DNA from: a phage
Direction: 5' to 3' (one strand)
DNA length: 17,779 bases
NCBI GenBank assembly: GCA_030820665.1
Contig: GCA_030820665.1_4852.1
Positions within the stretch are counted from its first letter, which is position 1; each line of letters begins with the position of its first letter. The position numbers and the translations under genes were made by a program. The notes below the pieces were generated by a model that had not been told where the DNA came from, ran no database searches, and saw only the letters and a list, made by a program, of their open reading frames with translations. Of the stretch, positions 6,468 through 9,374 are shown piece by piece.

Positions 6468-6746
6468 ATGAAACTATCGCAACGAGGCGTGGAGACGTTT
6501 GGAATTACCGATGCCGTGAATATATCGCCTTACATCACTACCGAGACAACGCAGAATCAGTTCGACGCGCTGGCAAGTCTTGCCACCGACATTGGCATTT
6601 ACGCGTTCCGTAAATCAACGCTTCTGAAGAAGCACAACCTCCGCTGCTTCTCATGTGCTGTTGCGCATTTCATCGCGTGGGGCGAGAAGACTGGCGACAA
6701 AGCAAAACGCAAAGCTGAAAAAGAGGTTTACTGGTATGGCTATTAG
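6468..6746 (+). CDS. GH24 (T4/P22-type) lysozyme-like protein, truncated; probably catalytically inactive
   Basis: Strong SD (GGAGG, 5-nt spacer). The C-terminal half, TQNQFDALASLATDIGIYAFRKSTLLKKHNLR...AHFIAWGEKTGDK, matches the conserved C-lobe of GH24 phage lysozymes (recalled P22 gp19-type NQNQYDALCSL..IG.SAF.GSTVLRQLNL...AF..W). The N-terminal catalytic region is reduced to about 27 residues. Confidence 0.55.
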   Translation: MKLSQRGVETFGITDAVNISPYITTETTQNQFDALASLATDIGIYAFRKSTLLKKHNLRCFSCAVAHFIAWGEKTGDKAKRKAEKEVYWYGY

Positions 6747-7200
6747 TAAAAACATGAAGGCGTTTCTGGATATGCTGGCGTACAGCGAGGGCACTGATAA
6801 CGGGCGGCAGAAAACCAATAATCATGGTTATGATGTGATTGTTGGCGGCTCACTGTTTACCGACTATTCCGACCACCCGCGCAAGCTGATTAGCCTGCCA
6901 AGGCTGGGCATTAAATCCACCGCCGCCGGTCGCTATCAGGTACTGGCTAAGTTTTATGATGCGTACAAAAAGCAATTGCGTTTACCGGACTTCTCCCCCG
7001 CATCGCAGGACGCCATTGCAATGCAGCTAATCCGTGAATGCAAGGCCACCGCTGATATTGAGGCTGGTCGCATTGCTGATGCCATCCATAAATGCCGCTC
7101 CCGCTGGGCCTCATTGCCGGGCGCTGGGTATGGTCAGCATGAGCAGAAGCTGGATAAGCTGATTCAGGTATACAAAGAGGCTGGCGGAGCTGTGGCATGA
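6736..7200 (+). CDS. Endolysin, lambda R-type lytic transglycosylase
   Basis: From the ATG at 6736 (AAGAGG SD upstream) the protein is MAISKNMKAFLDMLAYSEGTDNGRQKTNNHGYDVIVGG...WASLPGAGYGQ..., near-colinear with lambda R as recalled, including the catalytic Glu context LAYSEGTD. Confidence 0.88.
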   Translation: MAISKNMKAFLDMLAYSEGTDNGRQKTNNHGYDVIVGGSLFTDYSDHPRKLISLPRLGIKSTAAGRYQVLAKFYDAYKKQLRLPDFSPASQDAIAMQLIRECKATADIEAGRIADAIHKCRSRWASLPGAGYGQHEQKLDKLIQVYKEAGGAVA

Positions 7201-7436
7201 AAAAGCTAAGCAACTGGCTGCTCGCCGCGTGGATTTCATTCTGCTCGCTGTTACAACTATGGCCTGATGCAATGATGCATGTGTGGGTAATGATGCCGGA
7301 TGACCTGAAAGCAGCGCTACCGCTAATCGTGGTCAAAGGTGTGAGTTACTCAATTATGCTTGTCGGCATCATCGGCAAAATGCACGGCATGAGGAAGGAA
7401 AACCGGAGGCTGCGCAATGATGTCGATTCTCGTTAA
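7197..7436 (+). CDS. Putative holin (two predicted TM helices, charged C-terminus)
   Basis: 79 aa; the ATGA overlaps the endolysin stop. Hydrophobic segments LSNWLLAAWISFCSLLQLW and LPLIVVKGVSYSIMLVGIIG, then KMHGMRKENRRLRNDVDSR. Confidence 0.45.
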   Translation: MKKLSNWLLAAWISFCSLLQLWPDAMMHVWVMMPDDLKAALPLIVVKGVSYSIMLVGIIGKMHGMRKENRRLRNDVDSR

Positions 7437-7908
7437 ATACTGGCGACCGCTGGCAATTATTATAATTGTTGCCGCTGGCGCGTTGTGGGTGGCAAATAAA
7501 GTGTCCGGTTATGGCGAGCAACAATATGCCGCCGGATACGCGAAGGCAGTCGCAGAACAGAAGGCCGCAGACGAACAAGAGGAGCAACGACGCAATGCAG
7601 AACTGCAAAAGATTCAGGCCGACGCACAGCAAAGGATTGATGCTGCGCGCAATGATGCTGTTAATGCTGCCGCTAAGTCTGGCAGGTTGCAGCAACAACT
7701 CACCAGTATCCGCAAGCAGCTCGTCGGATATTCCACCGCTGAGTCCATTGGCAACCCAGCCGCAGAAACCGGAGTTTTGCTTGCAGACGTGCTCCGCAAA
7801 TCTGTCGAAAGAAATCAACAGCTGGCAGATTACGCTGACAGGGCGAGAGAGGCAGGATTGACGTGTGAGGCACAGTATAATTCTCTGCGTAATAAAAAAG
7901 CCCCGTGA
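7417..7908 (+). CDS. Rz-like inner-membrane spanin (i-spanin)
   Basis: N-terminal TM helix (LAIIIIVAAGALWVA) followed by a Gln/Ala/Glu/Arg-rich predicted coiled coil; CCGGAGG SD; lies after the endolysin and holin candidate. Confidence 0.75.
   Translation: MMSILVKYWRPLAIIIIVAAGALWVANKVSGYGEQQYAAGYAKAVAEQKAADEQEEQRRNAELQKIQADAQQRIDAARNDAVNAAAKSGRLQQQLTSIRKQLVGYSTAESIGNPAAETGVLLADVLRKSVERNQQLADYADRAREAGLTCEAQYNSLRNKKAP
7640..7861 (+). CDS. Rz1-like outer-membrane lipoprotein spanin (o-spanin), nested in the +1 frame of the Rz-like gene
   Basis: ATG 7640 with AAAGGA SD. Translates MLRAMMLLMLPLSLAGCSNNSPVS...DIPPLSPLATQPQKPEF...: signal peptide, lipobox LAGC, proline-rich periplasmic segment. 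Lies entirely inside 7417-7908. Confidence 0.75.
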   Translation: MLRAMMLLMLPLSLAGCSNNSPVSASSSSDIPPLSPLATQPQKPEFCLQTCSANLSKEINSWQITLTGRERQD

Positions 7909-7922
7909 TGGGGCTTTGTTTT
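7898..7922. terminator. Rho-independent terminator (bidirectional) closing the lysis cassette
   Basis: AGCCCC (7899-7904) / GGGGCT (7910-7915) stem with loop GTGAT; A-run upstream and T-run downstream. Overlaps the Rz-like stop codon. Confidence 0.7.
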
Positions 7923-7942: not shown

Positions 7943-8320
7943 TCACGCATAAAGCGCCTCCATCTTGTACCCAAACATAATTGCATTCTGATGCTCAGTG
8001 CTACCAGAAAACACCAGATAGCGTTTACCTCGATTATCCGTAACGATGTAGGCAGCTGGTGAGTTTTCCTTCCTAAATCTGGCTTCGTCATCACTCCCTT
8101 CATACATCCTCCCACTCGCTGGCAGATACAAATCGAATGTTTGAATTTCCGTTCCGCTGCATTCATTGCTACGTTCATTGAACAGGATAGCCAATCTTGG
8201 GTTGCCATTGGAATGCTTTGCAGGGAATGCGATTCTCCAGCCATCGCACATATACTGACTTGGGTAGGATAGCCATGACTTACCGCGCCTACCCTCCGTA
8301 AGAATCGGCTTACTCGCCAT
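7943..8320 (-). CDS. Hypothetical protein (125 aa)
   Basis: Minus ORF (track 7943-8368). The ATG at 8320 has a strong SD (GGAGGATCATA then ATG). No motif recognised. Confidence 0.55.
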   Translation of the reverse strand: MASKPILTEGRRGKSWLSYPSQYMCDGWRIAFPAKHSNGNPRLAILFNERSNECSGTEIQTFDLYLPASGRMYEGSDDEARFRKENSPAAYIVTDNRGKRYLVFSGSTEHQNAIMFGYKMEALYA

Positions 8321-8585: not shown

Positions 8586-8887
8586 TATTTAATCTCTCCG
8601 TTCAGTTCATTAACAATTAACGTTGCATAGCCAGCAATATCTTTCCAGCTGTCATCATAAGTCGGGTCGCCATTCAGAATGCGCCCAATCTTGTGCTGAA
8701 TCATGTCGAGCGCCTCGCGTTGACTTGGTGTGAGATTGCGCCAGCCATCTACCTTGCGCATCACATCTTTCAACTCCTGCATAATTTCAGCGCCGTCTTT
8801 GAATTTACCGTATCGACTACCGCGTTCGGTGATGAGTCGCTCTGTTGCGTCAGTATGGCGCTTATCGCCCGTGATTTGTGAACTCAT
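8585..8887 (-). CDS. Hypothetical protein (100 aa), probably all-alpha
   Basis: Minus ORF with SD GGAGAA. Translates MSSQITGDKRHTDATERLITERGSRYGKFKDGAEIMQELKD...SQREALDMIQHKIGRILNGDPTYDDSWKDIAGYATLIV. No confident family assignment. Confidence 0.55.
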   Translation of the reverse strand: MSSQITGDKRHTDATERLITERGSRYGKFKDGAEIMQELKDVMRKVDGWRNLTPSQREALDMIQHKIGRILNGDPTYDDSWKDIAGYATLIVNELNGEIK

Positions 8888-9374
8888 TGTGATGCATTCT
8901 CCTGAATTCTTTTATTTTTGCTTCTGCTTCTCTTATGTCGGAAAAGTAACCAACTGTGAATCTTTTGCCATTTACTCCAACTCTTGCATGCCACTTGTTG
9001 TGCGATGAACTCCAGTTAACCCCCTTGATACCGCTAGTGTTGTTTTTGTTCATTGCTTTGTTGTGGCTATTCTCAAATTTGCTGGCCTCCCTTAAATTGC
9101 ACGCCCTGTTGTCATTGCGAATGCCATTAATGTGGTCAATCATTTCACTTGCTGGCGCGCCATGAATGCATATCCATGCCAATCTGTGAGCAAGAAAAGC
9201 CCTACCGCAAAGAATTATTTGCACATATCCATCTGGCTTTAAGTAGCCAGCCACACTCCCTTTTTCTGCAATCCTATTCCTTGTCTTTAGCCATTTAAAT
9301 TCCCCAGTTAGTGGATTGTAGTAAAGGTAACTCAATATAAACTCCCTACTCGGCTCATCTCTCCTATGCCTCAT
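8862..9374 (-). CDS. HNH homing endonuclease (HNH_3-type core with AP2-like C-terminal domain)
   Basis: Motifs YNPLTGEFKW, HRLAWICIHG, IDHINGIRNDNRACNLR and C-terminal SGIKGVNWSSSHNKWHARVGVNGKRFTVGYFSDIREAEAKIKEF. The region looks AT-richer than the flanking sequence. Confidence 0.85.
   Translation of the reverse strand: MRHRRDEPSREFILSYLYYNPLTGEFKWLKTRNRIAEKGSVAGYLKPDGYVQIILCGRAFLAHRLAWICIHGAPASEMIDHINGIRNDNRACNLREASKFENSHNKAMNKNNTSGIKGVNWSSSHNKWHARVGVNGKRFTVGYFSDIREAEAKIKEFRRMHHNEFTNHGR

Follow-up and report, generated by a model that had tools for sequence, protein, structure and literature searches.

A nested Rz/Rz1-like gene pair as the probable embedded spanin of a Skate/Vi II-E1-type phage lysis cassette

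Positions 7417-7908 of the window, by which the entire 17,779-nucleotide stretch of phage DNA analysed here is meant, very probably harbour the last gene pair of the lysis operon of a lytic siphophage, encoding an embedded two-component spanin of the Bcep176/epsilon15 family. The outer, Rz-like gene (7417-7908, + strand) specifies an i-spanin of 163 amino acids, and the inner, Rz1-like gene, for which a location at 7595-7861 (+ strand) is preferred, specifies in the +1 frame the 88-aa precursor of an o-spanin. The assignment is based on the two open reading frames with their signals, the family membership of their products, their conservation and the dual-frame constraint acting on the overlap, all of which were directly observed. 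The embedded spanin pair is already known and curated, and nothing about it is new; the novelty that the first-pass annotation had attached to a 'compact dual-coding arrangement' was not borne out, the architecture being the classic lambda-type one.

The i-spanin gene was delineated by means of the list of open reading frames and the matches of its product to Pfam DUF2514 and PHROG 312. It is preceded by the Shine-Dalgarno sequence GGAGG (7405-7409, + strand), located 7 nt upstream of ATG 7417; for phage E1, the i-spanin Shine-Dalgarno site is marked in SpaninDB as 'ggaaggaaaaccGGAGGctgcgcg'. Within the i-spanin gene, the +1 frame runs without interruption from 7466 up to its stop codon at 7859-7861. 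The distance between the internal ATG at 7640-7642 (+ strand), with which the nested gene had initially been taken to begin, and the i-spanin start codon ((7640-7417) mod 3 = 1) places the second open reading frame in the +1 frame, and since its stop codon is located 47 nt before the Rz stop codon, the o-spanin gene is fully embedded. The embedded frame encodes ...MQNCKRFRPTHSKGLMLRAMMLLMLPLSLAG/CSNNSPVSASSSSDIPPLSPLATQPQKPEFCLQTCSANLSKEINSWQITLTGRERQD, where the slash denotes the predicted cleavage before the lipidated cysteine, and reads ...MLRAMMLLMLPLSLAG/CSNNSPVS... around this site. The lipobox L-A-G-C, recognised by a PROSITE-type pattern, occupies positions 7679-7690 (+ strand), with the codon of Cys32 at 7688-7690. 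Coordinates, frame and lipobox of the open reading frame that had been proposed to be nested in the Rz-like gene were thus confirmed in the sequence.

The gene pair directly adjoins the holin and transglycosylase genes of a lysis cassette with overlapping stop and start codons, as expected from the features that define two-component spanins and their embedded architecture (Summer et al. 2007; Kongari et al. 2018). On the + strand, this cassette comprises the genes for a lysozyme-like protein (mini-lysozyme) of 92 amino acids that was recognised by profile searches (6468-6746), for a lambda-R-like transglycosylase endolysin of 154 amino acids (6736-7200; PHROG 90 endolysin, 3e-57; termed 'endolysin/transglycosylase' in phage Skate) and for a holin of 79 amino acids (7197-7436; PHROG 13249, 4e-49; Pfam DUF7940; 'class II holin' in Skate). 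The start codon of the holin gene overlaps the stop codon of the endolysin gene (ATGA), and the end of the holin gene overlaps the first 20 nt of the i-spanin gene. The transglycosylase gene was intact in 24 of 24 relatives; an apparent count of only 15 intact copies out of 24 for both the mini-lysozyme and the i-spanin was dismissed as an artefact of fixed-length extraction combined with C-terminal length variation. No NCBIfam model matched the transglycosylase, the holin or either of the spanins. At the distal end of the gene pair, a terminator scan detected the hairpin AAAGCCCC-GTGAT-GGGGCTTT (7897-7917, no strand assigned), which is flanked by an A-run and by T-runs, folds with -13.6 kcal/mol (z = -2.55) and contains the Rz stop codon TGA (7906-7908) in its loop. 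A terminator is annotated at the same place in Skate, and the features of the hairpin suggest that it probably acts as a bidirectional intrinsic terminator at the end of the lysis operon. The neighbouring endolysin and holin genes, along with the spanin-family matches of both products, uphold the earlier classification of the module as a Gram-negative lysis cassette.

The deduced i-spanin scored 105.3 bits against Pfam DUF2514 (PF10721), well above the curated gathering threshold of 26 by which membership was judged (4e-30; profile positions 1-160 of 161). It also matched PHROG 312 'Rz-like spanin' at 6e-51 and was 100% identical to the 'spanin' of Salmonella phage vB_SenS_ST1UNAM. The predicted N-terminal transmembrane segment PLAIIIIVAAGALWVA (residues ~11-26; 7447-7494, + strand) was apparent from the Kyte-Doolittle profile, with a 19-residue maximum of 1.98 over residues 12-30, and is helical in the AlphaFold2 model. 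In this model, a monomer of modest confidence (mean pLDDT 65, pTM 0.25), residues 4-108 form a helix that is followed by a break at residues 109-113 and by a further helix at residues 114-160. Accordingly, the model delimits a periplasmic helix 1 (residues ~28-108; 7498-7740), a flexible linker YSTAESIGNPAAE with pLDDT < 50 (residues ~105-117; 7729-7767) and a periplasmic helix 2 (residues 114-160; 7756-7896), all encoded on the + strand. The modelled i-spanin has the TMD-helix-linker-helix layout described for i-spanins, comprising one predicted transmembrane domain at the N-terminus and a periplasmic domain that is largely alpha-helical. Its sole periplasmic cysteine, Cys150 (7864-7866), is part of helix 2, and the helix-2 half is the part of the protein that is conserved with epsilon15, phiV10 and Bcep176; exactly one periplasmic cysteine was found in 68 of 69 i-spanin homologues. 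The best hydrophobic period was 3.55 residues in helix 1 and approximately 3.5 residues in both helices, a periodicity that differed weakly from that of shuffled sequences (P = 0.12 and 0.046), so that a coiled coil is plausible and 'long helices' is the description kept here. Of the transmembrane helix and the coiled coil previously attributed to the Rz-like frame, the former was thus supported by hydropathy, and the latter is plausible with regard to the long predicted helices and their weak periodicity. A search of solved structures with the i-spanin yielded nothing meaningful, the best match (E = 0.031) being an unrelated protein.

The product of the embedded frame matched PHROG 11621 'Rz-like spanin' at 5e-34. 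A PROSITE-type lipoprotein rule was applied to both candidate starts and was satisfied at LAG/C in either case, with the cysteine at position 32 (or 17 in the case of the short start) and a lysine or arginine residue within the first seven residues; the lipoprotein signal originally ascribed to the embedded frame thereby held. The predicted features of the product, namely its small size, a signal for signal peptidase II, a lipobox and the lack of aspartate at position +2, are those characteristic of o-spanins. The lipobox was present in 65 of 65 complete related loci, and the +2 residue, which is serine in the window, was S, N, A or G, but never Asp, in 68 of 68 homologues. Lipoproteins carrying a +2 residue other than aspartate are sorted by the Lol system to the outer membrane, and an outer-membrane localisation is therefore predicted for the o-spanin. 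The mature protein of 57 amino acids (7688-7858, + strand) consists, according to its composition, of a Ser/Pro-rich linker and the subsequent conserved motif PEFCLxTCSANLS...W, the C-terminal segment being PEFCLQTCSANLS...W. All 68 mature o-spanins contain three cysteines including a CxxxC motif, which is encoded here at 7778-7780 and 7790-7792 (+ strand). The cysteines at mature positions 31 and 35 are conserved and available for disulfides, and the motif of the CxxxC segment is common to the Rz1 proteins of epsilon15 and Bcep176. Proline accounts for 10.5% of the mature o-spanin and for 21% of its first 28 residues, compared with 24% in lambda Rz1 and a background of 3.4%, but serine (19%) is the more common residue; the 'proline-rich periplasmic segment' of the first-pass annotation therefore stands as a moderate enrichment, and its wording was a mild overstatement.

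The closest record to the window is that of phage ST1UNAM, with 99.4% identity over the cassette and 96% identity over 91% of the window, and the phage belongs to the Skate/Vi II-E1 (Skatevirus/Macdonaldcampvirus) group. The same two open reading frames are called I-spanin and O-spanin in the Skate record, the o-spanin coding sequences annotated in Skate and Vi II-E1 correspond to coordinates 7595-7861 of the window, and the same embedded arrangement is described in the paper on phage Skate. The curated collection assigns the embedded pair of E1 to the Bcep176 i- and o-spanin families, with an o-spanin of 88 amino acids and a signal of 31 amino acids (Kongari et al. 2018/SpaninDB, PMC6139136), and epsilon15, phiV10 and SPN1S are grouped with E1 in these families (Kongari et al. 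2018, PMC6139136). Kongari et al. (2018) assign a protein to a family when it shares an identity of 40% or more with family members across no less than 40% of the periplasmic domain. The proteins encoded in the window fall within the Bcep176 families by this measure, with identities that refer to full-length proteins and not to periplasmic domains alone: the i-spanin shares 49% and the o-spanin 66% identity with the epsilon15 counterparts, and the respective values for Bcep176 are 45% for the o-spanin and 38% for the i-spanin over the whole alignment, or 48.6% over residues 89-157. Membership in the Jersey spanin family was rejected, as Jersey-type spanins are 'overlapped' and the relative E1 is placed under the embedded Bcep176 family.

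The conservation of the gene pair was analysed in a set of 66 related loci from IMG/VR and GenBank relatives, 65 of which are complete. An embedded +1 lipoprotein reading frame was present in all 65 complete loci, at i-spanin identities ranging from 36 to 92%. No frame disruption was encountered in independent sequence, and the near-identical phage ST1UNAM (L002) has an identical o-spanin sequence. Within the overlap, the third codon position of the i-spanin gene is the second codon position of the o-spanin gene. In clade A (27 distinct sequences), the third-position diversity of the i-spanin gene was 0.14 in the overlap versus 0.32 outside (Mann-Whitney P = 2e-6), and at 4-fold degenerate sites whose encoded amino acid is invariant, it was 0.08 versus 0.43 (P = 0.0035). 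In clade B (24 sequences), the corresponding third-position values were 0.079 and 0.203 (P = 2e-5), and the diversity rose to 0.34-0.43 immediately 3' of the o-spanin stop codon. This more than two-fold lower third-position diversity in the overlap, found in two clades, clearly indicates that both frames are under selection. Of the three codon positions of the o-spanin frame, the second was the most variable (0.138 versus 0.032 and 0.057), and the o-spanin sequence is accordingly under a looser constraint than the i-spanin sequence.

These data bear directly on the view that the +1 frame might be an unexpressed chance frame in an Ala/Gln/Arg-rich gene, in which case the DUF2514 protein alone, or something else, would disrupt the outer membrane. 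An open frame alone is not rare: among 20,000 synonymous recodings of Rz under two codon models, 5-16% contained a +1-frame ATG-ORF of at least 88 amino acids, and the length of the reading frame is thus unconvincing by itself. Moreover, the +1 frame is uncalled in most automatic annotations, including the ST1UNAM record with its 99.4% identity. However, a lipoprotein-like signal with 25 or more amino acids after it occurred in only 0.01-0.025% of the recodings, and the omission of o-spanin coding sequences is a documented annotation artefact that affects 196 of 528 systems (Kongari et al. 2018, PMC6139136). The reading frame, the lipobox, the CxxxC motif and the non-Asp residue at +2 are moreover retained in 65-68 homologues across deep divergence, the overlap coincides exactly with a halved diversity at synonymous Rz sites in both clades, and the product has its own PHROG profile match. 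A chance frame was therefore rejected on the basis of the lipoprotein signal and the conservation, and next to no credence is left for it.

The start codon of the expressed o-spanin gene is most likely ATG 7595, as judged from sequence comparisons, which gives a precursor of 88 amino acids with a signal of 31 amino acids; the mature 57-aa lipoprotein is identical from either start, 7595 or 7640. ATG 7595 is kept in every clade-A locus, whereas five clade-A loci in which the upstream ATG is retained (L010, L012, L015, L016 and L025) have ACG or ATA in place of ATG 7640. The Shine-Dalgarno sequence AGGAG (7580-7584, + strand) is located 10 nt 5' of ATG 7595, as opposed to AAGGA at a distance of only 3 nt from ATG 7640. 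In clade A, the o-spanin Shine-Dalgarno sequence reads AGAGGAG in all loci except L027 (GGGG), and AGGAG is marked as the o-spanin ribosome-binding site in the Skate record and, for E1, in SpaninDB. Additionally, the third-position diversity of the i-spanin gene is already low from ~7555-7570 onwards, and the constraint holds over 7567-7639, that is, 5' of ATG 7640. The records of Skate and Vi II-E1 and the curated spanin database likewise place the start at the upstream ATG. The length of the 31-aa signal peptide and the rather wide spacer of 10 nt are points against the upstream start; long n-regions are also present in the o-spanins of epsilon15 and Bcep176. Translation from ATG 7640, as the first-pass annotation had assumed, would yield a 73-aa precursor with the 17-aa signal MLRAMMLLMLPLSLAG/C, with ATG 7595 being either unused or used as well. 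This form passes the lipoprotein pattern with its cysteine at position 17 and R3 in the n-region, its signal resembles and aligns to the lambda Rz1 signal MLKLKMMLCVMMLPLVVVG/C, AAGGA is located just 5' of the codon, and ATG 7640 is found in most relatives, clade B included. On the other hand, the far clade, epsilon15 and Bcep176 are devoid of an equivalent usable internal start at this position. Considered together with the lost ATG in five loci, the short spacer, the constraint upstream of 7640 and the curated annotations, a start at 7640 is not favoured and appears rather unlikely, although it retains some plausibility.

Export, lipidation, complex formation, disulfide bonding and membrane fusion would be expected by analogy with the lambda paradigm, essentially all experimental spanin work having been done on lambda Rz/Rz1 (Kongari et al., PMC6139136). 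According to this analogy, the outer gene would yield a type-II inner-membrane protein of 163 amino acids, in which an N-terminal transmembrane helix is followed by two long periplasmic helices with a short flexible linker. The inner gene, most probably read in the +1 frame from ATG 7595, would yield a prolipoprotein of 88 amino acids that signal peptidase II may cleave before Cys32. The lipidated 57-aa o-spanin, with serine at +2, would be carried to the outer membrane by the Lol pathway. The C-terminal parts of i- and o-spanin would then bind each other and span the periplasm, and homotypic disulfides may stabilise the complex, as in lambda Rz/Rz1 (PMC6139136), with Cys150 of the i-spanin and the CxxxC motif of the o-spanin as candidates. 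At least one periplasmic cysteine is available in each protein (i-spanin Cys150; o-spanin mature positions 31 and 35), and at least one such cysteine for intermolecular disulfides is present in 507 of 528 spanin systems (Kongari et al. 2018, PMC6139136). The spanin complexes would be restrained by the peptidoglycan mesh until the wall is destroyed. After the holin has triggered and the transglycosylase has destroyed the wall, they would fuse the inner and outer membranes, leading to progeny release.

The resemblance to lambda Rz/Rz1 is one of architecture. Both systems nest the o-spanin gene completely in the +1 frame of the i-spanin gene and place the pair at the end of the lysis cassette, and both combine an i-spanin of TMD-helix-linker-helix layout with a small lipoprotein of the outer membrane as o-spanin and with cysteines in the periplasmic parts. 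The sequence similarity is marginal, with 25% identity over 123 amino acids between lambda Rz and the i-spanin (pairwise E = 0.005) and a 37% match between lambda Rz1 and the o-spanin that does not extend beyond the signal peptide and the ~17 mature residues following it. Since these values do not reach the 40%/40% threshold that Kongari et al. (2018) set for family assignment, membership in the lambda Rz and Rz1 sequence families was rejected, and the mechanism is transferred by analogy of architecture and not by close homology. Mature lambda Rz1 comprises 41 amino acids with 24% proline and one extra cysteine, and the mature o-spanin of the window comprises 57 amino acids with 10.5% proline, 19% serine and two extra cysteines in the CxxxC motif, which is absent from lambda Rz1; lambda Rz has two periplasmic cysteines, the i-spanin of the window one. 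The marginal similarity and the longer, less proline-rich mature o-spanin with its CxxxC motif leave room for a spanin-like pair that does not act by lambda-style fusion, for example by an intramolecular CxxxC disulfide and a different structural transition, and the intra-to-intermolecular disulfide isomerisation of T4 shows that spanin families differ in detail (Kongari et al., PMC6139136). However, architecture, topology signals and cassette position fit the lambda paradigm and nothing in the evidence points to another mode, which renders such a deviation highly improbable. A related idea, also improbable but slightly less so, combines two in-frame o-spanin starts (7595 and 7640, with 31- and 17-aa signals and different maturation rates, forming a timing device in the spirit of lambda S105/S107) with a CxxxC-based activation switch from intra- to intermolecular disulfides. 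The positive evidence for this idea consists of the finding that most relatives possess two plausible starts.

The practical point of these results is an annotation gap: the o-spanin coding sequence is omitted from the record of ST1UNAM (99.4% identical) and from those of most relatives, and the missing of embedded o-spanin genes by automatic gene callers is a documented weakness. Beyond annotation quality, the gene pair is of little significance, and no open question is made testable by it. It confirms the region as the lysis cassette of a phage that infects Gram-negative enterobacteria and provides a clean textbook case of dual-frame constraint, and the comparative data support the upstream start codon chosen by the curators.

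Among the known systems, the pairs of epsilon15, phiV10 and Bcep176 share with that of the window the embedded +1 architecture, a DUF2514-type i-spanin with a conserved C-terminal half and the o-spanin motif P-E/S-F/I-C-L-P-T-C-S-A-x-L...W. These phages are podophages or temperate, and their genes are arranged in the order holin, endolysin, spanins, whereas the order in the window is endolysins, holin, spanins; their o-spanins are extended by a C-terminal tail of 8-9 residues, and the N-terminal half of their i-spanins is divergent. The comparison with curated spanin collections that had been suggested at the outset led to phage E1 (Vi II-E1; NC_010495; VIP0009/VIP0010), whose homologues are curated as an embedded pair and are identical to the i-spanin by 88% and to the o-spanin by 86% over the full length. 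E1 and Skate (CPT_Skate_018/019) agree with the window in gene order, in protein lengths of 163 and 88 amino acids, in the +1 frame, in the AGGAG ribosome-binding site, in the 31-aa signal and in a mature o-spanin of 57 amino acids with the CxxxC motif. The lipobox is given as SLAG/C in E1 and as LAG/C in the phage of the window, and the differences between the E1/Skate pair and that of the window consist of point substitutions only.

In part of the stretch that codes for both spanins (window 7700-7800, equivalent to codons 96-126 in the clade-B loci L034-L062, one of the groups among the related loci), the first codon position of the i-spanin gene, which is the wobble position of the embedded o-spanin frame, is more diverse than the third. 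In the clade-B example the respective values were 0.10-0.25 versus 0.00-0.18, which argues, at the level of sequence diversity, that the o-spanin frame is locally more constrained than the i-spanin frame, whereas over the whole overlap the pattern is reversed and the i-spanin frame is the more constrained one.

A stem-loop (window 7897-7917; fold energy of -13.6 kcal/mol, z = -2.55) takes in the final two sense codons of the i-spanin gene together with its stop codon, and is flanked by an A-run on one side and by T-runs on the other. This element looks like a bidirectional intrinsic terminator and separates the lysis operon from convergent minus-strand genes starting at approximately position 7943. 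The small genes of this downstream region include a 170-aa ORF (window 8862-9374, minus strand), the matching CDS of which is annotated as 'zinc-binding loop region of homing endonuclease' in the record of the closest relative, Salmonella phage vB_SenS_ST1UNAM. Alignments of the whole window to relatives were fragmented into 7-12 pieces, which is consistent with mosaic insertions in the early-gene region around this ORF.

Some close relatives contain a small additional ORF in the gap between the holin and i-spanin genes, as in Escherichia phage vB_Eco_ZCEC08 (L073:1319-1489; 56 aa, 'hypothetical protein') and in about nine of the 24 IMG/VR relatives, for instance L005, L006, L013 and L022. The window lacks the approximately 100-170 extra bases found there, and the additional ORF could be a moron or could have an accessory role in lysis, for example as an antiholin.

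Upstream of the real endolysin gene, and overlapping its start by 11 nt, a 92-aa 'mini-lysozyme' is encoded (window 6468-6746, plus strand). The protein matches only positions 55-114 of the 125 positions of the Pfam Phage_lysozyme profile, so that the N-terminal portion that is normally catalytic seems to be missing. Full-length versions were kept in all 15 relatives with an extracted region covering the gene, and the codon-position diversities of 0.05, 0.04 and 0.19 look like the result of purifying selection. The gene stands beside a complete transglycosylase gene, and its counterpart in the related phage Skate is annotated as 'endolysin/glycosidase, Ex5Dx8T motif'.

All junctions of the lysis genes in window 6736-7908 (plus strand) overlap, namely at 6736-6746, at the ATGA of 7197-7200 and at 7417-7436, suggesting translational coupling. 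The cassette follows the order endolysin(s), holin and spanins, in contrast to phage lambda, in which the order is holin, endolysin and spanins.
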